A stretch of 64,000 nt of DNA from an uncultured Candidatus Saccharibacteria bacterium (lineage in GTDB: Bacteria; Patescibacteriota; Minisyncoccia; Sungbacterales; JACQCQ01): the NCBI GenBank assembly GCA_964494945.1, contig CAZBTX010000001.1, forward strand, positions 67,088-131,087. Direction: 5' to 3'. The notes beneath the pieces are model-generated. The model did not search any database, was not told the DNA's origin, and was given only the letters and a program-made list of their open reading frames with translations. Shown here one piece after another: positions 6,401 through 50,760 of this stretch; position 1 is the first letter of the stretch, and each line of letters starts with the position of its first letter. Both the position numbers and the translations under genes were made by a program.

Positions 6401-8436
6401 GGCGAAGAAGTGCCAATACCCACTCTCCCGAAAGGCGAGGATGAAGTGTCCAAAGAAAGCAGAGGATTGGCGGCTGTGGTGCTTGTCGCCAGAGACCAGG
6501 CATTGACCGTCAGGTTGGGAATGGTGCTTGTCGCCCGATTGTTGTAGACAATGTTCCCGGAGTTGATGGAGAAAAGGTCTCCGATGGCATCACCCACATA
6601 TAAAGAACCCTCCACCAGCAAAGAGGAGGCGGAAGTGGAGGCCACGGTGACTGAACCGGCCGAGGTCAGGGAATTGACATACACATCCCCCTCGGCATCC
6701 ACCAGGAACTTGGTAGAGCCATTGACCGCCAGACCCAGGAGATTGGTATCGGAGACGGCTGATGCGGGATTGATATACAGGGAAGAGTTGGACACCGCCG
6801 CATTGGCCACTCCCGTGGCCCAGGCGGGAAAGGTGTGGGGCGTTACGGGGACATAGGTAGCCACCACCTGGCCGGAACTGGTGGTGGTGGCCGAGACGGA
6901 TAGAGTTCCGTTATTAGCCGAGAACACCCCGCCCACCGAGAGCGCCCCGTGGATCTGGGTGTCTCCCGATACTTCAAAGTTGCCGGAGGTGGTGGTGGAG
7001 ACACCCACCCCCAAGCCCCCGGTGAGATATGTATGGCCGGATACGGAAAGAAGCTGGGAGGGTGAAGAAGTGCCGATGCCCACTTTATTCCCCCCAAAAT
7101 CAACCACCAGAGTATCGGTGTCTATGGTCAGTCCTCCCGCCATGGTGGAAGTGGAGGTGGTATCGGTCAGGGTCAATTTAGAGGCGGTAACTCCTGCTGT
7201 TACCGTGAGCGACCCCGTGCTCACCATAAGATCACCGGTTCTCACGGTGGCGCCGTTATAAATGTCCAGGGAGTCCAGCTTGTCTATTCTCTGCGAGACG
7301 GTCACCATCTGGAGGGAAGAGCCGGCCACGCGGGAAGTATTATTCAAGTCCCCCCGCACGGTGAAGAGGTCATGGGAGAGGGAGGCCAGTTCCACTCTGA
7401 TTTTGTTGTTTTCCTGCTGAAAGAGTTGAGAGAGCTCTTGCTTAAGACCGGCGGTGTCCGTTATGACCAGTTGTCTTTCTATGATGGTGGAGGGTTGCTC
7501 TTGCTTTTCGGCAGATGCGGCTGGTTTCTCCGGCTCTTGGCCGTTTAGCGTAAATTCAACTGTTCCCGATGGCAGGGTCAAGGATTCACGGAATTTTGAA
7601 CCCAAAAGCAAATTGGAAAAGAAGGGCCGGATGTTCTTAAAAAGTCCCGCGATATTGCCTTCGCTTTGAATGATTTTCGCGACATTCCGACCGGTGTCTT
7701 GGGTGGCGGTGAGGCCGGATTGATAGAAATTTACGGACGCACCTAAAGCCGCATTTTTTAAAGCTACAAATGTTTTGCTGAAATCATTAGGATTTGAAAT
7801 GCCACGACTAAGCGCTCCGGCCAATTTTTCTAAAGTCAGGGGAATATTTTTTGTCTTTTCATAAACTTCAGATAACCCGATATCTTTATCAGGAATAATC
7901 TGCTTATGGGACGCCGAGACAAGAATGGGATTGAGGGTTCGACTGCCGTCTTTAACCAATGCCGCCAGATCAGCACGCGCGCTTATTGCCAATATTAGAG
8001 ACAACACAGCTAAGGTGCTTATTCCTAGAGGTTTAAATTTAAAAAAGAAATTTGGAAATTCAGATACTTTCGTTCTTTGATATCCTTTTTCTTTATAAAC
8101 ATTTAGCGTATAGAAAATATTTTCTCTCGGTATGGATGAAGAAACATGGTCGGGCTCCCGCAATTTCACCGTACTTTGTATCGGTTTTATAGGTACGCTC
8201 CGGGAATCGGAACGCGGAATTTTTACGCTTCTTTTCCATGAGCGGTTGTTTAGGTATCTCGTCAATTCCTCGGCGTCAATGAACCATCCATGCCCAATTT
8301 TTTCTCCGGCTATTACCCTCCGATTAATAAGAACTCTCAAAGAGTCCGGTTTGATGCCGGATAGATCCGAGGCCTGTATTAAATTCAAGAGTTTTTGCTC
8401 CATCCCGTTAGAGACAGGAAATGCGGCGCTCCGCAT
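454..8436 (-). CDS. Giant (2660 aa) surface/secreted repeat protein. It contains about 12 copies of an SGNVGIGT(T/A)xP beta-repeat motif (tail-fibre-like), a long Gly-rich tract, and two tandem C-terminal ~150-aa domains carrying a D(L/I)AE(N/K)Y motif. A hydrophobic segment (LGISTLAVLSLILAISARA) at about residue 130 is a signal peptide or TM anchor. The true start may be the second Met at 8403.
   Basis: Uninterrupted 7983-nt ORF. Repeated motifs were read directly. Composition is Thr/Ser/Gly/Asn-rich, typical of beta-helical fibre or adhesin proteins. Confidence 0.8.
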   Translation of the reverse strand: MRSAAFPVSNGMEQKLLNLIQASDLSGIKPDSLRVLINRRVIAGEKIGHGWFIDAEELTRYLNNRSWKRSVKIPRSDSRSVPIKPIQSTVKLREPDHVSSSIPRENIFYTLNVYKEKGYQRTKVSEFPNFFFKFKPLGISTLAVLSLILAISARADLAALVKDGSRTLNPILVSASHKQIIPDKDIGLSEVYEKTKNIPLTLEKLAGALSRGISNPNDFSKTFVALKNAALGASVNFYQSGLTATQDTGRNVAKIIQSEGNIAGLFKNIRPFFSNLLLGSKFRESLTLPSGTVEFTLNGQEPEKPAASAEKQEQPSTIIERQLVITDTAGLKQELSQLFQQENNKIRVELASLSHDLFTVRGDLNNTSRVAGSSLQMVTVSQRIDKLDSLDIYNGATVRTGDLMVSTGSLTVTAGVTASKLTLTDTTSTSTMAGGLTIDTDTLVVDFGGNKVGIGTSSPSQLLSVSGHTYLTGGLGVGVSTTTSGNFEVSGDTQIHGALSVGGVFSANNGTLSVSATTTSSGQVVATYVPVTPHTFPAWATGVANAAVSNSSLYINPASAVSDTNLLGLAVNGSTKFLVDAEGDVYVNSLTSAGSVTVASTSASSLLVEGSLYVGDAIGDLFSINSGNIVYNNRATSTIPNLTVNAWSLATSTTAANPLLSLDTSSSPFGRVGIGTSSPFATLSIQSPAGTTQTAFAIGSSTATSFIVDANGDVGIGTATPDVLLTLKTPTGSPVQTPALRIYAANGVRYTDLYHYTDDDFVIKTSAGGIAFQPNNGIVSNTRTEEGTGFRSYRFQGANSNSYIDFFRGGTNQGLRLYQGTDLATAGATVYLFDDKDTDGRLTAASGNQNWMSLEPTIAQSGTAGYTVLNIDSTQTSVGSGSNYLINAQVGGSSKLAVLSSGNVGIGTTTPGQKLSVAGDILGNNFISSYFTSTSTTATSTLAGVFSVGSTTPASNSLLSVGTSSPLLFVDKSSGNVGIGTAGPGTALHVGGSGALSFGATPATTGTIRLPAGSSIMYRDAANTQDLTALSMASDYMIVGGSGALQFAYNGAVTAVFAGGSFYPEANTSIGDTGHRWTKLVLGSSSFSGNLTLIDVQNYSLTGSNASSLASLSGTLNTTGVVDVYKLAITDTAHGAGSNLLALYSGASGTTGRFVVDMSGNVGIGTTTPNWLLQVAGTRPSFALSDTSASANLKHWLFSSMGGNLYVGTSTDAYATSTPAALTISNSGNVGIGTAGPETALQVKKDITSGTVGANQIISGGSLNQNVNGSGVVTAYTGTDDGFTYGAVGGYASIDVVNNRGLGLWGISENSPASQVTYGSPDVFITQSGNVGIGTTSPATTLSVQGNALFSGNLTVANITATGTTLTLSGLPINSLLSTNASGVLTGTSTPTFGNFNATSTTATSTITGGLAIETSGLVYDFSSNNVGIGTAAPGAKLHLYNSSGGTNQYIENASTEAAATRYIINNAPTTPLYVGVDSTSGGTLALGTSASAGVIHRAGAFPLQFATNNAVAMTILSGGNVGIGTTSPGTLLSLGNTGANTINISATATSTFGSGLNVLTGCLAVNGTCVGGLPTGTDGQMLSYVGATLTATSSIFLATSGNIGVGTTSPWGNLSVEMNTTNPSFVVSNQGSSTPAFFIGGVNQNGNIGVGTTSPAEQLAVANRLYVGGTGTSTIENNLRILGTLQVGAGTSYLTTNTLNLGSGGDLQINGTSVLNATTLGSGVTGSSLTSVGTITSGTWTGATIAVANGGTGATTLTGVLKGNGTSAFTAAANGTDYTLITGTTCSAGQHVSAITASGGVTCSADTDTVVRFASIQTFTSGTDATYTTPANTSYIVVELWGNGGGAGGQGGGSGLGTGGGGGGGGYSMKSIATPAATYKYTSGGGGAGGSGGNNGTDGVKLCFGTNATACTTPLLQATGGAGGSAGNGEGGTGTPGAGGSGSSGDVNLKGNGGSSNIGGIAAGDNIGGRGGDGVTSGAGGAGTAGSIIVYEYKTVTSGADLAENYSVSDSSVSAGEIVSFDFEKPLFVKRAVRGDHRPLAGIISTQPGLLLTDKTDATGQRPVALAGRVPTKVNLEGGEIAIGDRIALSSVPGVGMKAGLFDASVGIALEPHTAASIGETILVFMNLQQGVNISALAEELFSATTTTPHLTLSSSGAEDSPALTFSGDISTGIWSLTSSMLNISTGGRERLRIDSLGNVGIGIGSATSSVSVPARLTVVGAAFSTDPLFAVFAGATSTGATTTAFVIDYTGNVGIGTTNPDPKLEVAGAGCFDTAVDTHCTAVGTAGDIYYGTAHANWTDIAEKYPSLEALESGDIISLDAGAIATATSAKPFIKKAAAGETLLGAISTQPGMVLGDDYGKSPDFSVALVGRVPVKVSTESGPIAIGNRITSSSLAGVGMKATTSGMTVGIALESFDESTTGSPTSNAAEVGLPDGRTVRTGKILVFVNLGYSKLDDAVPQLAAANSSSLATNGWSVDQSTGKVNVNFYGDVNLGGNALLGVGQIVSQNGLWKIDETGRMTMKYIEAEEINAQKIIVQNIQVKAADITQTGITIYDRATQHPVCVFSDNNVLHSEPGDCASGMSLAAPIPITSTATPIIDITGLTASTTSATTPTPEGVGAPTASVGTDTATTTPSMATTTTVTAAVSTATASTTPSI
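1657..5733. repeat. Intragenic near-identical DNA repeats of 20-29 bp with core gtcgtcccgatgccgacgttgcc. Copies lie at about 1657, 3856, 4424, 4746, 4937 and 5711. Diverged copies lie at about 3470, 3606, 4145, 5491, 6283 and 7070.
   Basis: Exact nucleotide matches read in sequence. They encode the GNVGIGT motif on the minus strand and VVPMPTLP in a plus-strand frame. Confidence 0.85.
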
Positions 8437-8527
8437 TTCCGGAAGTTAACTAGTAATCTTGTATAGAGATTTTTATCGTTTCGGTTTCATAAATCATAGA
8501 TAAAGTAAGGGGTGGGTCTCTAACGGG
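8404..8527. repeat. Element bracketed by a 10-bp inverted repeat cccgttagag ... ctctaacggg. It contains a perfect hairpin ggaaatgcggcgctccgcatttcc (8417-8440). It overlaps the first annotated ATG of the giant gene and abuts the second Met (8403).
   Basis: The same two 10-mers flank tRNA-Thr (50566/50645). 9/10 variants sit at 46179/46308. Confidence 0.6.
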
Positions 8528-8963
8528 ATCCATCAGTGTAAGTTACGAATTCGTAACTTGTTCCCGTAACTAAATTATAGAGCCGATCATCAGAATAAAC
8601 CGTGTGGATAAAGTATTTATTCCACAACTTTTTAAAAACTATTCCTTATGTTTTAACGATGTGTTTTAGTGATGAATGAGTTGAGCGGCCAAATAAATAT
8701 CCGGTATTTGATAATTTAAACGGGGATGCCCCATGGTTTTTGATGGAGCGAACTTTTTACTTAAATTTAATCGGATTAGTAGATTATTAAATATAGATTT
8801 CATTTTTCAGCTATAGCGTGGTACTGAAAAAGACCTTTATTTTGTGATCTACACGAATAAATTAGCTTAGCCGATAAGATAGCGGCTTAGAGAAATTGCT
8901 CTGGTTGCGGAAATAGGGTCAATCTGTTAACCTATATTAGCTAATAATTAAGCTGCTGACGGC

Positions 8964-9434
8964 ATGGATTTAGATGTTAGGAAATACGAAATCGCCTACT
9001 TAGTGTCTCCCCGGGTCGCGGAAGACGATGTGGTTAGAATAGCCGGAATCGTTACCGGAGCCATTGAGGAGCAAAAGGGCGTGGTTCGCCACGTTGAAGA
9101 GCCGAAAAAGAGGAAACTGGCTTACCCTGTGGAAAATGACCGCATGGGTTATTTGGGCTATACTAGATTTTCGGCAGATCCTAACGCGGCATCGGGAATA
9201 TCCAAGAAGCTTAAATTCCAGAAAGAGATAATGCGTTTTCTTGTAGTGGAAGAAGAAATTGAGCCGGAAAAGCGCCAGATCACGAGGCGCGCGTGGCGTT
9301 CAACCGAAGGCCTGCCATCCACGGTAACAGTGGGGGCCCCCAAACGTGAGACAGAAATTGTTGCTTCACCGGAAGAACGCGAGGCCAATATAGAGAAGAT
9401 AGATAAGCGGTTAGAGGAAATACTGGGGCAATGA
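8964..9434 (+). CDS. rpsF: 30S ribosomal protein S6
   Basis: N-terminal YEIAYLVSP motif. Sits in the rpsF-ssb-rpsR arrangement. Confidence 0.85.
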   Translation: MDLDVRKYEIAYLVSPRVAEDDVVRIAGIVTGAIEEQKGVVRHVEEPKKRKLAYPVENDRMGYLGYTRFSADPNAASGISKKLKFQKEIMRFLVVEEEIEPEKRQITRRAWRSTEGLPSTVTVGAPKRETEIVASPEEREANIEKIDKRLEEILGQ

Positions 9435-46058: not shown

Positions 46059-46177
46059 GTATTATGTTTCACTCCCCCATTGTCAAACATTTCACGCTGA
46101 ATTCTGATAAAAACAAAAAATGGCTTAATTGAGCCAATTTTTATAAAAACTCTATTGACTAATTCACAGGTTTTCCA

Positions 46178-46317
46178 CCCCGTTAGAAGTCCGCTTTCAC
46201 TATAGGAATAACTTTCTAGTGATGAAGCCAATATTGTGCTAGGACATCTTTTTTGATTTTAAGACGCAAAAGAAAGCGGCAGCCCCGACGTGACGTGGGG
46301 GCTTACTTCTAACGGGG
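46178..46317. repeat. Element bracketed by a 13-bp inverted repeat ccccgttagaagt / acttctaacgggg. It contains the hairpin agccccgacgtgacgtgggggct (46281-46303). It is a 9/10 variant of the cccgttagag / ctctaacggg elements at 8404-8527 and around tRNA-Thr.
   Basis: Seen in sequence. Sits at the left edge of the compositional island. Confidence 0.6.
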
Positions 46318-46364
46318 TCCACTCTACTAAAACTAGCTAAGTTCAATTGACAATCTTTTATCCT

Positions 46365-46451
46365 ATGCTTAGCTATAGCCAGTTCATTTCACAACCCTCC
46401 TTCTTAGCTGGAAGTGCCGTTAGAACAACGACCTTTCCACCCTGAGGAGGA
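46365..46451 (+). promoter_or_regulatory. Leader/promoter repeat A, copy 1 (~87 bp). Contains a TTCACA/TTGACA-like hexamer, the anti-SD-like stretch ccctcct, and the SD gaggagg.
   Basis: About 85% identical to 47322-47410. Its RBS portion is also repeated at 46912-46934. Confidence 0.6.
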
Positions 46452-46459
46452 ACTCAATA

Positions 46460-46645
46460 ATGCCAATCAGTAAGAACCGTCAACAGATGATCGGCCTCCG
46501 CCGGCTGAACGCACTGCTGAGAGTTCTCAGCTCGGCTCGCAAGGCAATTCGCCACTTCCAGCAGGGCCGTGAGGCGTGGGGGCGAGCCGCTCTCGCAGAG
46601 CTGGAACGGAATCTCCAGAGCCCGAACCTACCGAAACAGAAGTGA
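46460..46645 (+). CDS. Hypothetical 61-aa basic helical protein (island ORF1, high GC)
   Basis: ORF with strong SD, preceded by repeat A. Confidence 0.4.
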   Translation: MPISKNRQQMIGLRRLNALLRVLSSARKAIRHFQQGREAWGRAALAELERNLQSPNLPKQK

Positions 46646-46658
46646 GAGGAAACCTCTA

Positions 46659-46904
46659 ATGCCCAACTTCAATGCCGGATACCGGAGAATTGCCGAGTGC
46701 ATCTTTTTCTCGGGCATCGACGAACGCCGTTTGCTTACCCTCGCGACTTATCGCAAGAGCAAGACCTTCGCTGACGTTCGAATCGCAGTCGAAAAAGCAA
46801 AAGCAAGCTGGCACCGGAGACCGTTCAGAGATGTAGAGACACGCATCAGCGATGCGATTCGCGAAGTGGTGATCCCGAACGCCGCCGCATGCAAGGAAGA
46901 TTAG
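46659..46904 (+). CDS. Hypothetical 81-aa protein (island ORF2). Start at ATG 46659 with SD gagagg; the track ORF 46569-46904 overlaps ORF1.
   Basis: Frame-consistent ATG 13 nt after the ORF1 stop. Confidence 0.4.
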   Translation: MPNFNAGYRRIAECIFFSGIDERRLLTLATYRKSKTFADVRIAVEKAKASWHRRPFRDVETRISDAIREVVIPNAAACKED

Positions 46905-46939
46905 CAACCGCACGACCTTTCCACCCTGAGGAGGATTAA

Positions 46940-47257
46940 ATGAGATTGAGAATTGAAACCGGAGGTATACCCGTCACCGGATACGAAGTTCACGCACGGC
47001 TTCGGGGAGGACGCATTGTCTTCCGTATCTGGGATGGACAGAGGAACTCCTACGCGACAGATGAGATCACGGGGGCCGACGCGTGTGGCCGCTTGATCCG
47101 GTTTGAAGGCCGGCGAAATAAGCGGCTAACTCCCGCCGAAGCATCGCGGCGCGTGCAGAATGCAAAGGAGGACGGCTTCGAGTCGCCCTTCGTGACGTCT
47201 GGTGAGCTTCGTGATCCTTGGAAACAAGAAGGTCGACAAATAAGGCGCGGCATCTAG
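46940..47257 (+). CDS. Hypothetical 105-aa protein (island ORF3)
   Basis: Preceded by the repeated RBS module gacctttccaccctgaggagga. Confidence 0.4.
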   Translation: MRLRIETGGIPVTGYEVHARLRGGRIVFRIWDGQRNSYATDEITGADACGRLIRFEGRRNKRLTPAEASRRVQNAKEDGFESPFVTSGELRDPWKQEGRQIRRGI

Positions 47258-47276
47258 AGCCGCCCACTGCAAACGG

Positions 47277-47315
47277 GAAGCCGCCCATGCAGTACGGGCG
47301 GCTTCTTCTTTTTTC
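47277..47315 (+). terminator. Intrinsic terminator, repeat B copy 1: gaagccgccc-atgcagtac-gggcggcttc plus T-tract
   Basis: 10-bp perfect stem followed by ttcttctttttt. Confidence 0.8.
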
Positions 47316-47321
47316 TAAAAT

Positions 47322-47410
47322 ATGCTTAGCTATAGCCAGTTCGTTTGACAAACCCTCCTTCTTAGTTGGAAGCGCCTCTAACCAAGAGACCTTTCCACCC
47401 TGAGAAGGAG
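47322..47410 (+). promoter_or_regulatory. Leader/promoter repeat A, copy 2 (tttgacaaaccctccttcttagttggaag ... cctgagaaggag)
   Basis: Near-identical to 46365-46451. Confidence 0.6.
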
Positions 47411-47420
47411 AAGCTGGCAG

Positions 47421-47735
47421 ATGTCATTCAATGCCCTCCAGGAGATCCGCAAGCGGCGAGCAAGACATTCATTTTTCAGGGCATCCAGAGAAGCAAGAAA
47501 GGACAGAGCGAAGGGTTATAGGGTCATCTCAATTAGTCTCTATAACCAGCAAGCCGAAGCCGTTGACTGGGCAATGAACGTCCTACGCCGCGCCGGATAC
47601 CTCAACGCGAGCCGTTCGTTCGTCATACAGACCCTCATTGAACAGTGTCTTGAGGGTAAGAGCCCGAGAGAAATAGAGCGGTTCTTCGAGGGGCGCAGGA
47701 TGAATTTGCTAAAGCCGCGCTCACGCAAGAAATAA
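47421..47735 (+). CDS. Ribbon-helix-helix (CopG/Arc-like) DNA-binding protein, 104 aa (island ORF4)
   Basis: Beta-strand YRVISISL followed by two helices (YNQQAEAVDWAMNVLRRAGY; SRSFVIQTLIEQCL). Basic flanks. Confidence 0.45.
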   Translation: MSFNALQEIRKRRARHSFFRASREARKDRAKGYRVISISLYNQQAEAVDWAMNVLRRAGYLNASRSFVIQTLIEQCLEGKSPREIERFFEGRRMNLLKPRSRKK

Positions 47736-47746
47736 AGGAGGTAGCC

Positions 47747-48055
47747 GTGAGTGAGATTGTATCGCCGTGTAACGGTCTAGCGCGATGCTTCCGCCACCAA
47801 ACTAGATGCTCACGAATCGTGCTGACATCGCGGGAAGAGTATGCCGCACGCCAGCGCCGCAAAACGAGGCGCCGTCGTCTCTGGCGCATAATCCGTGAGC
47901 ATTATCGGGTCGGCGTAAAGTGGGGGCTAGACCCCATCCCGCACCGATACCACCTACAGGCGGTTCTCCTGATGGAGCGGGTGCGTGGTGAAGAGGAGCT
48001 ACGACAGCGTTTAGTAGCCAGCGGGCACATGGCACCCGAAAAAGAAGTAAGCTAA
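47747..48055 (+). CDS. Hypothetical 102-aa Arg-rich protein (island ORF5), GTG start after AGGAGG
   Basis: ORF plus SD spacing. Confidence 0.35.
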   Translation: MSEIVSPCNGLARCFRHQTRCSRIVLTSREEYAARQRRKTRRRRLWRIIREHYRVGVKWGLDPIPHRYHLQAVLLMERVRGEEELRQRLVASGHMAPEKEVS

Positions 48056-48109
48056 TAAGACCAATCCCGCAACGAGGAGAAGTTCTTCCGCCATGAGGAG
48101 GACAAGACA

Positions 48110-48499
48110 ATGAAGGCCACGTTGATAGAGTTCCCGTACAGCGTTGATACCGGTGATGAGTGCAAGGGGCCCCGGCGCCATACAGTGAAGTGCGGTGCCA
48201 TTCTCTTCGAGGATGGCGAACATAAGGTGCTCTTCCTCCAAGGCACTTACGACAGGCAGGGTGCGTTCTTCCATGTCACTGAGATGGAAGATGGCCGCCC
48301 CAAACTTGAGGGACACCTCTGGGATTATCGTGCGCCAGACGGTCCGGTGACCTCAATCAGGGAGCTCCCCTTCACTGAGGACCAGATACGTGCAGCGCTC
48401 GCGATGCCCGAGAAGCAGGAGTTGCTCCAGAACATTGCTCGGTCAATCAAGGAGATTGCCAAGCTCTGTGGCGAAACGGTACCAAGAATGAGTTACTAG
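48110..48499 (+). CDS. Hypothetical 129-aa protein (island ORF6)
   Basis: ORF preceded by gaggagga. Confidence 0.4.
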   Translation: MKATLIEFPYSVDTGDECKGPRRHTVKCGAILFEDGEHKVLFLQGTYDRQGAFFHVTEMEDGRPKLEGHLWDYRAPDGPVTSIRELPFTEDQIRAALAMPEKQELLQNIARSIKEIAKLCGETVPRMSY

Positions 48500-48584
48500 A
48501 CCTCGGCATCTCCGAGCTCCGAATGGTCACACACGAGAACTTTCGGCGCAAGAATGCGTTAACAAGCCGCCACACTGCAAACGG

Positions 48585-48623
48585 AAGACCGCCCAGCAGT
48601 ACGGGCGGCTTCTTCATTCTCAA
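48585..48623 (+). terminator. Intrinsic terminator, repeat B copy 2: gaagaccgccc-agcagtac-gggcggcttc
   Basis: About 50 bp near-identical to 47264-47315, including the upstream cactgcaaacgg segment. Confidence 0.65.
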
Positions 48624-48666: not shown

Positions 48667-49131
48667 CTATAACAAAAGATTATCAATAGTATTTATTACA
48701 TACATAGCGTCAGAATGATACTTATATACTTCCGCCAAGGTAACCGTGATTGGTTGTCCATGAGCTAAAGCATTTTTATTTTCTACGATACTATTTAATG
48801 CATCTCGATTTTGTCTTGGAATACTGCGGACAGCGGCTTTCCAGGTCGGATTAAATCTACCCAAGAGTTCCCCAATCTTTTCCGTATCTGGATTACGGAA
48901 ATTATTCCCTAAGGAACTTTTGACAAAATTACTGATTCCATTGTTTCTAATCATGGAAACCATCTCATTTACAATTGTTTCAACAACCTCTTCATAAATT
49001 CCACAAATATAAACCACTAAAAATTTAGCTAAATATGCTTGCTCTAAATGAGAGGCTGAGGTAAAACTTTTAATATCCTTAATAGCATCATCGATCTGGA
49101 GAAGAAGATTACTAGCATTAAGACTTTTCAT
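48667..49131 (-). CDS. Hypothetical 154-aa alpha-helical partner protein, overlapping the DUF262 gene by 14 nt. The C-terminal segment ENKNALAHG weakly resembles a HEPN R/KNxxxH motif.
   Basis: Translational coupling with the upstream gene. Low GC (~33%). Confidence 0.5.
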   Translation of the reverse strand: MKSLNASNLLLQIDDAIKDIKSFTSASHLEQAYLAKFLVVYICGIYEEVVETIVNEMVSMIRNNGISNFVKSSLGNNFRNPDTEKIGELLGRFNPTWKAAVRSIPRQNRDALNSIVENKNALAHGQPITVTLAEVYKYHSDAMYVINTIDNLLL

Positions 49132-50236
49132 AGCCTAGATATTTGATAGCCATCCTAATTCTCCCCTGAACCTTATCTATATCCGTTGTTCCAGTAGAAA
49201 TATAGGATTTAAAACTCTCATTAGTCTTTAGTTTATTGTATTTCTTCTTGAGATCCTGGTCATTTTTATTAAGTAATATAGATGCAACTCCTACAGAAAC
49301 TGCGTCAAAAAGAGCTACATTAATTCCGGCTTTTATTCGGAAAGCATCTTTACCAATTTTCTTATACACAGTATTCATCACTTTAATGAAAATATTTTTA
49401 TATTTTTCTTGATCACCCTCAGATATATTACTTTTACTTTTCATGAAATCGGTTATAAAATCCTTCATAGGTTTTTTATAAGTCCTCCAACCATAATAGA
49501 GTGCAAAAAAACGAAGGATCATCTCTATGTCCTTCATACGTGTGTCTGATGTTGGCCTCTTGAGCAATTTCCTCCAGCTATCACATTGATTTAATGTGTG
49601 AAGAAATGAATTTATTTCTCCCTGAATAACTGCATTCCTTATTTCCTGTTGATTCAAAGGCATACCTCCCGTATTAAGGCGATAAAAAATTTCATAAATA
49701 CTTCTCTTATCTTGTGGATCAATCTGCTCAAAGACTGTGGCACGCAAAACTGTATTATTTAATTTACGTTTATCGGCGTCTGAAAGTTCTGCAAATAGCT
49801 TATTATTCCAAGGAGAATGCACTTCTTTTAGACGAAATGGGGCTCCATTTTCAAATGAACCCCTCAAATAGTACAGAATTGTCTTTAATCTCTGCTGTCC
49901 GTCAACTACAATTAGCTTTTCATCACCTTCTTTATACAGAAATACTTGAGGAACTGGGAGCCCAAGAAGAAATGATTCAATTAATTTACTAGCTTTTCGT
50001 TCGGGCCAAACATATTTTCTCTGAATAGTAGGCACATAGATATCCCCGTTAGAAAGCTGTTTAACCAAAACTTCAAGAGTATAGTCGGCCCCATAGGTCC
50101 TAATCTTATAAGAAGCTACATCTTCTTCTGAATCACGTTCTTCCGATTGGAGTTTCTCCAATACTAAATCCGATGCGGTTTGTTCATCCTCTATAGTATG
50201 CTCTGTTACAATAATTTTAACTCTTTTCTTCTTCAT
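49118..50236 (-). CDS. DUF262 (ParB-like, DGQQR-motif) domain protein, 372 aa, with no fused DUF1524/HNH nuclease
   Basis: Motifs LIVVDGQQRLKT and FYRLNTGGMPLNQQEIRNA are characteristic of the DUF262 N-domain of GmrSD-type enzymes. Confidence 0.7.
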   Translation of the reverse strand: MKKKRVKIIVTEHTIEDEQTASDLVLEKLQSEERDSEEDVASYKIRTYGADYTLEVLVKQLSNGDIYVPTIQRKYVWPERKASKLIESFLLGLPVPQVFLYKEGDEKLIVVDGQQRLKTILYYLRGSFENGAPFRLKEVHSPWNNKLFAELSDADKRKLNNTVLRATVFEQIDPQDKRSIYEIFYRLNTGGMPLNQQEIRNAVIQGEINSFLHTLNQCDSWRKLLKRPTSDTRMKDIEMILRFFALYYGWRTYKKPMKDFITDFMKSKSNISEGDQEKYKNIFIKVMNTVYKKIGKDAFRIKAGINVALFDAVSVGVASILLNKNDQDLKKKYNKLKTNESFKSYISTGTTDIDKVQGRIRMAIKYLGYEKS

Positions 50237-50276: not shown

Positions 50277-50314
50277 TCCCGACTTCTTTATTTTATATCT
50301 GAATGTGCGTCGGG
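50277..50314. promoter_or_regulatory. Promoter-like element tcccgacttc-(AT-rich with TATAAAA on minus)-gtgcgtcggg upstream of the DUF262 operon. Direct repeat of 50720-50760.
   Basis: Shared 10-bp ends that are inverted repeats of each other (cccgac/gtcggg) flank an AT-rich -10-like box. Confidence 0.45.
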
Positions 50315-50348: not shown

Positions 50349-50433
50349 TAATTCTGATGGGCAGGGTGAGAGTCGAACTCACAGGGCCATTTAAGACAGC
50401 GGATTTACAGTCCGCCCCCGCCCCCTACGGGTC
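50349..50433 (-). tRNA. tRNA-Tyr (anticodon GTA), long variable arm
   Basis: Minus strand: acceptor GGGCAGG/CCTGCCC, anticodon stem GCGGA/TCCGC with loop containing GTA, T-arm GTGAG-TTCGACT-CTCAC. The D-arm assignment is less clean. Confidence 0.75.
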
Positions 50434-50573
50434 TACCTGCCCATATATTATCTAGATTTTTAAGAGCTTCCATAGCCCATACCTTTTGCCAAGAGCCGAG
50501 GGCGAGATTCACCTAGACCGCTGACTGCGTCAGCAGTCGGCCAAGGGAACTCGCGACCTGTTTATCCCGTTAG

Positions 50574-50645
50574 AGCCGACCCCGAGATTCGAACTCGGAA
50601 CCTACGGTTTACAAAACCGTTGCTCTACCATTGAGCTAGGTCGGC
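50574..50645 (-). tRNA. tRNA-Thr (anticodon TGT)
   Basis: Minus strand GCCGACCTAGCTCAATGGTAGAGCAACGGTTTTGTAAACCGTAGGTTCCGAGTTCGAATCTCGGGGTCGGCT. All four stems pair. Flanked by the 10-bp inverted repeat cccgttagag / ctctaacggg. Confidence 0.9.
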
Positions 50646-50719: not shown

Positions 50720-50760
50720 TCCCGACTTCACTTCTTAAAATTATACAATAGTGCGTCGGG
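50720..50760. promoter_or_regulatory. Promoter-like element upstream of the tRNA-Thr/Tyr operon (minus strand, extended -10 TTGTATAAT). Direct repeat of 50277-50314.
   Basis: Minus-strand reading is cccgacgcactattgtataattttaagaagtgaagtcggg. Confidence 0.5.

Follow-up and report, generated by a model that had tools for sequence, protein, structure and literature searches.

A DUF262-HEPN gene pair in a Candidatus Sungbacteria genome: a distant copy of the PD-T4-2 architecture

The window (the whole 64-kb stretch of DNA that was analysed) contains a pair of minus-strand genes flanked on one side by the mraZ cell-division cluster and on the other side by genes for tRNA-Tyr and tRNA-Thr. The first gene (gene A) encodes a DUF262 protein and the second (gene B) encodes a HEPN protein. 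The features of the locus are as follows.

48588..48609, no strand assigned: GC-rich hairpin, 58 nt past the gene B stop codon, terminator-like on both strands
48667..49131, minus strand: gene B, HEPN protein of the RiboL-PSP-HEPN family, PD-T4-2B-like, 154 aa, ATG start, intact ORF
48760..48777, minus strand: HEPN catalytic motif K119-N-A-L-A-H124 (within ENKNALAHG), with Lys in place of the canonical Arg
49118..49131, minus strand: overlap of the gene A stop and the gene B start, 14 nt
49118..50236, minus strand: gene A, DUF262 (GmrSD_N) protein, PD-T4-2A/NsnA-like, 372 aa, ATG start, intact ORF
49889..49903, minus strand: DGQQR, motif II of DUF262, predicted NTP-binding centre (from reading the sequence)
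50277..50314, minus strand: upstream repeat element, CCCGACGCAC-(AT-rich, TATAAA)-GAAGTCGGGA, which stops 40 nt short of the gene A ATG
50356-50443, minus strand: tRNA-Tyr, directly upstream of the pair and on the same strand
50573-50645, minus strand: tRNA-Thr, upstream of the pair and on the same strand
50720-50760: second copy of the upstream repeat element, upstream of tRNA-Thr

Direct reading of the junction places the stop codon of gene A (TAA) at 49118-49120 and the start codon of gene B (ATG) at 49129-49131; gene A ends with GGC TAT GAA AAG TCT TAA and gene B begins with ATG AAA AGT CTT AAT. The 154-aa ORF overlapping the DUF262 stop by 14 nt, as described in the initial annotation, is thus present in the letters, and this arrangement suggests that the translation of the two genes is coupled. 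The GC content of the pair is 0.344, as compared with a mean of 0.488 +/- 0.035 for other segments of equal length (z = -4.2), which is the lowest value anywhere in the 64 kb (49% GC as a whole) and argues for horizontal acquisition of the pair. Both the AT-richness and the adjoining tRNA genes had been pointed out from the outset. An Rfam scan of the island detected the two tRNAs and nothing else, the GC-rich ORFs adjoining the pair gave zero Pfam or PHROG matches, and neither an integrase nor any other mobility gene was recognisable in the island.

Each copy of the upstream repeat is comprised of the exact 10-mers CCCGACGCAC and GAAGTCGGGA placed around an AT-rich TATAA box, and exact CCCGACGCAC occurs in only two copies in the window, one upstream of tRNA-Thr and one upstream of the DUF262 gene. 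The promoter-like element that was initially proposed to be shared with the tRNAs is therefore a real repeat with two copies, but a sigma-70 consensus scan called neither of them; the element is a candidate promoter or operator. On the other side of the pair, the GC-rich hairpin, of which a copy with 83% identity is located at 47276-47311, is a candidate bidirectional terminator that would be shared with a convergent plus-strand cassette.

The gene A product has a 100% identical counterpart among the NCBI proteins, encoded in a Candidatus Sungbacteria MAG. It matches the Pfam family GmrSD_N/DUF262 (PF03235) at residues 57-203 (E 3.6e-30, which exceeds the gathering cutoff), and PF03235 was its only match in a Pfam search, with no match to DUF1524 or HNH. 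This result agrees with the initial description of the large protein as a standalone DUF262 protein that lacks DUF1524/HNH, and the DGQQR and LNTGG motifs mentioned there are both read in the translation. Following the published definitions of DUF262 motifs I-III (PMC12065111), motif I is QRKYVW (QRxxxW), motif II is DGQQR, and motif III is FYRLNTGG, in which FYRLN represents FxxxN. Residues Q72, R73, W77, D112, G113, Q115, R116, F184, and N188 are invariant across 30 gene A homologues. In the layout of the protein, residues 1-19 are of low confidence, an acidic N-terminal stretch reaches to approximately residue 45, and the DUF262 domain is followed by a helical C-terminus (approximately residues 204-372) that, from its position and the all-helical model, may correspond to the ParBDB domain (Li et al., 2025). 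The AlphaFold model has a pLDDT of 86.7, and its best PDB folds are BrxU/GmrSD, ParB-CDP, and SspE (BrxU 7p9k, SspE 6jiv). An enzyme of the GmrSD/BrxU/SspE type was ruled out, because the 372-aa protein contains only PF03235 and its C-terminal half is helical. Among PHROG families, gene A matches phrog_2598 (3.8e-81), and NCBIfam provided nothing useful for either protein.

In PADLOC, gene A is matched over its full length by NsnA (2.1e-78) and by PD-T4-2_A (2e-53), the latter aligning residues 30-366 with profile positions 16-360 of 363. The higher score of NsnA would be expected if the locus were a remnant of a Menshen system (NsnABC) in which only NsnA has been kept; this explanation is effectively refuted already. 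The NsnA model also picks up the authentic PD-T4-2A of Escherichia coli (197 bits), and the tested E. coli copies of DUF262+HEPN are all matched as well, so that the model is simply a broad one. Moreover, no ATPase or NsnC-like gene is found near the pair, the flanks of which consist of tRNAs, orphan small ORFs, and housekeeping genes, and none of the homologous loci described below has an NsnB-type ATPase gene directly downstream, where most of them have a HEPN gene. Dazbog (DzbA/DzbB) was also considered and ruled out, with zero Dzb models among the PADLOC matches of either protein at E <= 1.

The gene B product is a member of Pfam PF18735 (RiboL-PSP-HEPN), with 59.2 bits and E 6.5e-16 at a cutoff of 28.4, and the guess of a HEPN protein that had been made from ENKNALAHG proved to be correct. 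Its AlphaFold model (pLDDT 95.6) comprises seven helices, and the top four matches in a Foldseek search of the PDB are HEPN toxins of HEPN-MNT systems, but these matches are non-significant (E 0.4-1, TM 0.44-0.54). The canonical HEPN motif Rx4-6H is not found in gene B, which carries KNxxxH instead of RNxxxH; the His is kept, the spacing and the flanking residues are otherwise canonical, and E47 represents the third conserved polar residue. K119, N120, and H124 show no variation among 27 close homologues of gene B. Among 69 partner proteins from diverse phyla, the His is present in all 69, with Arg in 65 and Lys in four, while among the best 150 cluster representatives of the gene B family Lys is found in 87 and Arg in 60 (His in 148 of 148). 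Within the Lys clade, there is little or no variation at His124, Asn120, and Glu47, and purifying selection on these residues fits an active-site role of KNxxxH. Lys119 may be a functional stand-in for the canonical Arg; no HEPN site with such a Lys is known to us to have been tested biochemically.

It is tempting to go further and to regard the KNxxxH clade, in which Glu47 and His124 are strictly conserved, as a mechanistically distinct DUF262+HEPN branch that has passed between CPR bacteria and DPANN archaea, which are otherwise poor in known defences; we regard this as doubtful. Such a branch could differ in its RNA target or in its chemistry; alternatively, its HEPN protein could be a regulated non-nucleolytic partner of a ParB-like protein that does the damage. 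The atypical Lys, together with the lack of an integrase or other mobility gene in the island, could also be taken as the mark of an old insertion that survives only as a decaying relic without function. This is very improbable, given that both ORFs are intact, that every family-invariant residue is present, that the coupling overlap and the downstream hairpin are preserved, and that 87 of the 150 closest cluster representatives share the Lys variant.

DUF262 homologues were collected from 80 loci in many bacterial and archaeal phyla, and 77 of these loci were evaluable. In 68 of the 77, a gene of 150-238 aa is located directly downstream in the same A-then-B order, and at the junction the two genes usually either overlap by 4 nt (ATGA) or lie 0-13 nt apart. 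PF18735 matched all of the partners (69/69, the window's gene B counted), and an iterative HMM seeded with the subfamily of the window's gene B recruited 68 of 68. Thus the homologues of the two genes do co-occur, a check that the initial annotation had suggested, and they form a conserved, often overlapping pair. The other nine DUF262 homologues have no HEPN partner, and a six-frame search revealed no hidden HEPN; their neighbours are unrelated (thiC, Uma2, a MalK-type ABC ATPase, and a zeta toxin). On the basis of these nine loci, DUF262 proteins of this kind may still have some function without a partner.

The partner family comprises at least 1,787 clusters at 50% identity, distributed among many bacterial and archaeal phyla. 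One homologous pair, in a Magasanikbacteria genome, adjoins an HpaII R-M system and Vsr, another adjoins a DNA methylase, and others are found on IncX1 and IncF plasmids, inside a prophage, and in temperate phages. The closest relatives of the window system (50-59% identity) belong to other CPR bacteria and DPANN archaea. The system is thereby documented in a CPR bacterium, and the affiliation of these relatives hints that ultra-small episymbionts exchange defence genes with one another.

The named system that matches the pair, which the initial annotation had been unable to find, is PD-T4-2 ("DUF262, HEPN") of E. coli ECOR65, validated against T4 in 2022 (Vassallo et al., PMC9519451, Tables S1-S3, S6). 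Its protection was seen in native and heterologous hosts, deletion of PD-T4-2 from ECOR65 resulted in more T4 plaquing, and a PD-T4-2B H127A strain was constructed, such mutants being reported to be without protection (PMC9519451). The mechanism is still called largely uncharacterised (PMC12065111). The authentic PD-T4-2 locus was recovered from 17 E. coli chromosomes by means of the primer sequences in Table S8 of Vassallo et al.; the primer-bounded locus is 1,603 bp in strain 2009C-3133, and the figure for ECOR65 in Table S2 is 1,540 bp. The plasmid copies of E. coli and Salmonella and the prophage copy, which were first reached by homology, are further variants and not PD-T4-2 itself.

Gene A is homologous to authentic PD-T4-2A over its full length (27.5% identity, 363 aa, BLASTP E 2e-38). 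Between gene B and authentic PD-T4-2B, BLASTP gave an E value of 0.016 and hhalign an E value of 9e-5 at a probability of only 59.5%, in an alignment that keeps E47 and the [K/R]NAxAH motif in register; the authentic B protein, too, belongs to PF18735 (31.4 bits). As controls, authentic PD-T4-2A scored 538 bits on PADLOC PD-T4-2_A and authentic PD-T4-2B scored 213 bits on PD-T4-2_B. Gene B fails the PD-T4-2_B models, the best of which (PDLC04029, E 9e-4, 17 bits) covers the N-terminal half only. However, these models match only approximately 14 of the 69 partners from homologous loci, and it is therefore the models that are narrow, rather than the locus that is different in kind. Since PD-T4-2_B barely sees gene B, automated defence finders would probably miss the locus, and it is understandable that it was left without a name.

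The architecture of the pair is therefore already known. An entry in Table 1 of the 2013 catalogue of Anantharaman, Makarova, Burroughs, Koonin and Aravind (PMC3710099) reads "Ribo L-PSP-HEPN ... operon with ParB," validation as PD-T4-2 followed in 2022, and the Candidatus Sungbacteria genome carries a distant copy, the window pair. The initial proposal of a novel defence module is superseded by these two precedents, and RefSeq already labels the E. coli copies "DUF262 domain-containing protein" and "HEPN domain-containing protein"; the discovery value of the locus is accordingly small. On the other hand, the PD-T4-2-type family extends far beyond what the PADLOC B models capture, such loci are probably under-called, and tests of the large conserved sub-clade with Lys in place of Arg could help to define more precisely what an active HEPN site is.

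From its domains and its homology to PD-T4-2, the pair is best read, as had been suggested initially, as a defence or nuclease system with two components, and we consider that it is probably an anti-phage system of the PD-T4-2 type whose two genes were gained horizontally. There is precedent for DUF262 as a sensor (PMC12065111; PMC10952713). The DUF262 domains of GmrSD, BrxU, and SspE suggest by analogy that gene A would most likely be the sensor; equipped with a DGQQR centre for NTP binding and a helical C-terminus that is presumed to contact DNA, it may bind the DNA of an invading phage, possibly in modified form, and NTP binding or hydrolysis would then bring about a conformational switch. 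Gene B would most likely be the effector, a dimeric, metal-independent RNase with a composite site of E47, K119, N120, and H124, which would be released or activated by A to cut host and/or phage RNA, such that phage propagation stops. We infer this order of action from A to B along with the trigger, the RNA target, and the outcome, be it abortive infection or direct immunity.

HEPN proteins are also frequent toxins of toxin-antitoxin (TA) systems, and the best PDB fold matches of gene B are such toxins. Furthermore, A and B are tightly coupled, the pair begins within the 3' end of the replication-initiator gene on IncX1 plasmids of E. coli and Salmonella, and on an IncF plasmid it lies beside pemIK. 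These features would suit a TA or addiction-like module, in which a HEPN toxin is restrained by DUF262 and the pair stabilises its carrier mobile element or helps it to compete, instead of sensing phage. Such a module is unlikely here, because the E. coli homologue protects against phage in both kinds of host, because the order of a large gene first and HEPN second and the NTPase motifs of DUF262 suit a sensor more than a simple antitoxin, and because the window pair is chromosomal, with no recognisable mobile-element genes around it. TA behaviour and defence by abortive infection can coexist.

The assignment of the effector role to gene B is opposed by a type IV-restriction-like scheme, in which the ParB-like DUF262 protein would itself be a DNA nuclease or nickase and the Lys-variant HEPN would be a non-catalytic adaptor or regulator. 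We find this scheme improbable, because PD-T4-2 defence needs the HEPN His, because the Lys of gene B and the other residues of its putative active site are conserved as described above, and because cleavage by the characterised DUF262 proteins (GmrSD, BrxU, and SspE) is assigned to DUF1524 and not to DUF262 (PMC12065111; PMC10952713). The points in its favour are the absence of the canonical Arg, the DUF262 homologues that have no HEPN partner, and the view of Anantharaman et al. (2013; PMC3710099) that ParB-like domains serve R-M-like systems as DNases.

Compared with known systems, the anti-phage pair proposed here shares with GmrSD, BrxU, and SspE an N-terminal DUF262 NTPase/sensor domain, and these enzymes are its best structural matches; however, they carry a fused DUF1524 HNH DNase domain, whereas the corresponding component here is a separate RNase-type protein. 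Gene A resembles NsnA of Menshen, its best-scoring PADLOC model, in having a ParB-DUF262 domain followed by a C-terminal helical region, but the ABC-ATPase NsnB and the effector NsnC are absent, and the effector would be the HEPN protein encoded directly downstream. The 2013 entry agrees with the window pair in both HEPN family and gene neighbourhood; by contrast, that family was scored as having Rx4-6H conserved, and the Lys clade is not singled out in the relevant portion of the text. PD-T4-2 differs from the window pair in sequence (the A proteins share only 27.5% identity and the B proteins about 15-22%), in the Arg of its RNAAAH127 motif where gene B has Lys, in the junction of A and B (a 4-nt gap in E. 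coli and a 14-nt overlap here), and in host, which is here a CPR bacterium. In addition, E. coli PD-T4-2 is located inside a P4-like satellite next to ssrA, whereas there are no satellite or prophage genes around the window pair. Nevertheless, both comprise a DUF262-only protein of about 365 aa, with the three motifs and an acidic N-terminal stretch, followed within a few nt by a PF18735 HEPN protein of about 160 aa, the catalytic His of which (H124 here and H127 in E. coli) occupies almost the same place in an xNAxAH motif. Both are also AT-rich relative to their hosts (GC 0.336 in E. coli and 0.344 here), and a tRNA-like gene adjoins the insertion in each case, namely ssrA in E. coli and tRNA-Tyr here.

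The DUF262 gene (gene A) and the HEPN gene (gene B) are two intact minus-strand ORFs that overlap by 14 nt, as the initial annotation described; read from the sequence, the shared segment runs from the gene B ATG to the last base of the gene A stop codon. The pair is located within a 4.4-kb non-core stretch that separates two housekeeping blocks:

49118-50236, minus strand: gene A, intact ORF, 372 aa
48667-49131, minus strand: gene B, intact ORF, 154 aa
Flanking block 1: PBP/ftsL/rsmH/mraZ cluster
Flanking block 2: tRNA-Tyr, tRNA-Thr, tsf, rpsB, rpmE and prfA

The adjacency to tRNAs and the AT-richness that had been ascribed to the pair were also borne out: tRNA-Tyr and tRNA-Thr are on one flank, and the GC content is 0.344 versus 0.488 +/- 0.035 in equal-length windows (z = -4.2), the lowest value across the 64 kb. 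The next-lowest patch in a 1-kb profile (0.375) is at 8001-9000.

Pfam assigns the gene A product to GmrSD_N/DUF262 (PF03235, E 3.6e-30, residues 57-203) and finds no DUF1524 or HNH domain in it, in agreement with its description as a standalone DUF262 protein without a fused nuclease. The three motifs by which DUF262 is defined, QRxxxW, DGxQR, and FxxxN (PMC12065111), are all present (QRKYVW, DGQQR, and FYRLN) and are invariant across 30 homologues. The AlphaFold model (pLDDT 86.7) combines alpha and beta structure in its N-terminal domain and is helical in its C-terminal half, and its top Foldseek folds in the PDB are BrxU (GmrSD family), ParB-CDP, and SspE. Residues 1-45 (50102-50236) include an N-terminal acidic stretch typical of this DUF262 family, with near-invariant positions E27, S31, E32, D35, D39, A41, and Y43; authentic PD-T4-2A of E. 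coli likewise opens with an acidic stretch (its locus L087, 4001-4110). The model has pLDDT <50 at residues 1-19 and moderate confidence to about residue 40. Because the N-terminus is about 15-20 residues longer than in the homologues, the true start of gene A may be further downstream.

The suggestion that the partner is a HEPN protein was confirmed by a Pfam match to HEPN_RiboL-PSP (PF18735, 59.2 bits; cutoff 28.4). Its AlphaFold model (pLDDT 95.6) comprises seven helices, and four HEPN toxins lead the Foldseek matches in the PDB at non-significant E values of 0.4-1. The motif reads K119-N-A-L-A-H124, with Lys instead of the Arg of R-N-x-x-x-H, and none of its Lys, Asn, and His residues varies among 27 close homologues. 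Among partners from diverse genomes, this position is Arg in 65/69, and Lys recurs in three planctomycete loci. An exhaustive profile search (E <= 1e-3) yielded 1,787 partner clusters; in the best 150 of these, the position is Lys in 87, Arg in 60, and His in one, the catalytic His is retained in 148/148, and Glu47 in 142/147. Lys is therefore a common, conserved alternative within the RiboL-PSP HEPN family, which argues for a working HEPN active site rather than decay. No biochemical study of HEPN sites with Lys is known to us. The intact ORFs and conserved residues also argue against the locus being a decayed relic, and conservation of the HEPN site argues against a system in which the ParB-like protein targets DNA and the HEPN protein is non-catalytic.

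Close homologues of the two genes lie side by side in their genomes, adjoining an HpaII R-M system with Vsr in a Magasanikbacteria genome and a DNA methylase on another metagenomic contig. With each species represented by a single genome, a scan identified 80 loci (28-47% identity) in Spirochaetota, Actinobacteria, Acidobacteria, Chloroflexi, Cyanobacteria, Planctomycetes, Proteobacteria, Bacteroidota, Firmicutes, Thaumarchaeota, and methanogens. These contain 81 DUF262 genes, of which four are cut by contig ends. The proposed check for co-occurrence gave a positive answer: an ORF of 150-238 aa lies directly downstream in 68 of the 77 evaluable genes, most commonly with a 4-nt overlap. PF18735 matches all 69 downstream partners, the window's included, and an HMM built from the window's partner subfamily recruited 68/68 in two iterations. 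The nine partner-less loci have unrelated neighbours and no hidden HEPN in any frame. Cyanobacterial homologues (Microcoleus, Lyngbya, and Hormoscilla; L038, L042, L045, L047, L057, and L027) are such DUF262 solos, in which HEPN was not found in any frame; in L038 the gene is flanked by thiC and a Uma2-family gene, and the ORFs of the other Microcoleus/Lyngbya loci match it in size and orientation, the only features compared. A Dehalococcoidia chromosome carries two tandem DUF262-HEPN pairs (L037, 1366-3586 and 3953-5561), the first DUF262 ORF being 581 aa by an ORF call that takes the longest start.

The nearest relatives of both genes (P0006, P0081, P0119, and P0138; 50-59% identity) are divided between CPR bacteria (Parcubacteria and Magasanikbacteria) and archaea (Pacearchaeota, Diapherotrites, and Methanosarcinales), suggesting that the pair was recently transferred between domains. 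Homologous pairs also occur on IncX1 and IncF plasmids of E. coli and Salmonella and in one prophage, and temperate phages carry gene A homologues. A toxin-antitoxin or addiction role is plausible in plasmid contexts and is compatible with defence. On the IncX1 plasmids (L085, 2130-4644; p573-5), the start of the DUF262 gene falls within the replication-initiation gene, 8 nt from its 3′ end; therefore, the pair appears to be co-transcribed with the initiator.

The promoter-like element said to be shared with the tRNA operon is a true repeat, with exact 10-mers CCCGACGCAC and GAAGTCGGGA on either side of an AT-rich TATAA box at two sites:

50720-50760, minus strand: CCCGACGCAC...TATAA...GAAGTCGGGA copy 1, upstream of tRNA-Thr
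50277-50314, minus strand: CCCGACGCAC...TATAA...GAAGTCGGGA copy 2, upstream of the DUF262 gene

However, a simple sigma-70 scan calls neither copy, and its promoter role is therefore putative. The copies form direct repeats on either side of the tRNA-Thr/tRNA-Tyr pair. Because the 10-mers are partly complementary (CCCGAC/GTCGGG), the element could be a hairpin or operator; it could also be a duplication from insertion of the defence pair. Perfect 17-nt inverted repeats (50565-50581/50639-50655) reach about 8-10 nt past both ends of tRNA-Thr and are possibly a precursor stem. A perfect 14-nt inverted repeat with arms 114 nt apart (46177-46190/46305-46318) lies just past mraZ and has no Rfam match (46177-46318).

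Convergent with the defence pair is a GC-rich plus-strand stretch (46364-48618; 0.55 versus 0.485 for the whole window) built of two repeated cassettes:

46364-46451 and 47321-47409, plus strand: ~88-nt repeat opening each cassette, 81-91% identical
5-12 nt before ORF starts 46460, 46940, 47421 and 48110, plus strand: leader TTCCACCCTGAGGAGGA in each cassette
47276-47311 and 48583-48618: hairpin GGAAGCCGCCC...GGGCGGCTTC closing each cassette

A CCGTTAGA core is common to the 17-nt repeats, the 14-nt repeat, and the cassette leader repeat. The cassette ORFs are small and basic (61-129 aa) and have no match in Pfam or PHROG; that of 129 aa (NCBI HYT39_03205) has only two homologues among 5.8 billion proteins.

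The best-supported reading of the pair is a sensor-effector system. The ParB-like DUF262 NTPase, presumed to bind DNA, would sense invading DNA, by analogy with GmrSD, BrxU, and SspE, in which such sensing by DUF262 has been shown (PMC12065111, PMC10952713), and would then control an RNase effector, the HEPN protein; in the E. coli system, the His of this effector is essential. We infer the order from sensor to effector, as well as the trigger, the RNA target, and an abortive versus direct outcome.

The kind of module that the initial annotation put forward as a candidate novelty had already been listed in 2013, as "Ribo L-PSP-HEPN ... operon with ParB," in a HEPN survey (Anantharaman et al., 2013, PMC3710099), and was validated in 2022 as PD-T4-2 of E. 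coli ECOR65, described as "DUF262, HEPN," with PF03235 and PF18735 as the top HHpred matches of A and B (Vassallo et al., 2022, PMC9519451). PD-T4-2 confers protection against T4, its deletion in ECOR65 increases T4 plaquing, and a PD-T4-2B H127A strain was built, such site-directed mutants being reported to lose protection (PMC9519451). Reviews place PD-T4-2, together with Menshen and Dazbog, among DUF262 systems without DUF1524 and describe their mechanisms as still largely uncharacterised (PMC12065111). In PADLOC, gene A is a full-length match to both NsnA of Menshen (2.1e-78) and PD-T4-2_A (2e-53), and gene B a weak match to PD-T4-2_B (9e-4). Authentic PD-T4-2A itself scores 197 bits on the NsnA model, which is therefore simply broad, and no NsnB-type ATPase gene follows the DUF262 gene in any of the homologous loci; the reading of the pair as a remnant of Menshen is effectively refuted.

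Authentic PD-T4-2 was traced through the authors' lambda-red and mutagenesis primers, which place it in 17 complete E. coli chromosomes. In strain 2009C-3133, onto which all three primers map (His127 within PRNAAAH), it lies inside a P4-like satellite (psu, ogr/delta, integrase) adjoining ssrA, and RefSeq labels its genes as a DUF262 protein and a "HEPN domain-containing protein." This pair is likewise AT-rich (GC 0.336). In a positive control with PADLOC, the authentic proteins reach 538 bits (A) and 213 bits (B), whereas window A and B reach 180 and 17 bits; on PF18735, authentic PD-T4-2B (31 bits) is a weaker member than the window partner. Across 363 aa, the A proteins are 27.5% identical (E 2e-38). 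The B proteins align marginally in pairwise comparison (22% identity, 105 aa, E 0.016), and PD-T4-2B matches the window-subfamily profile with E 9e-5 (probability 59.5%), in an alignment that places Glu47 and the motifs NKNALAHG/PRNAAAHT in register. What remains of interest is a family whose breadth is under-called, a HEPN motif with a Lys variant, and a spread through CPR bacteria and DPANN archaea. The locus is a distant member, in a Candidatus Sungbacteria genome, of the PD-T4-2-type system of ParB-DUF262 and RiboL-PSP-HEPN proteins.
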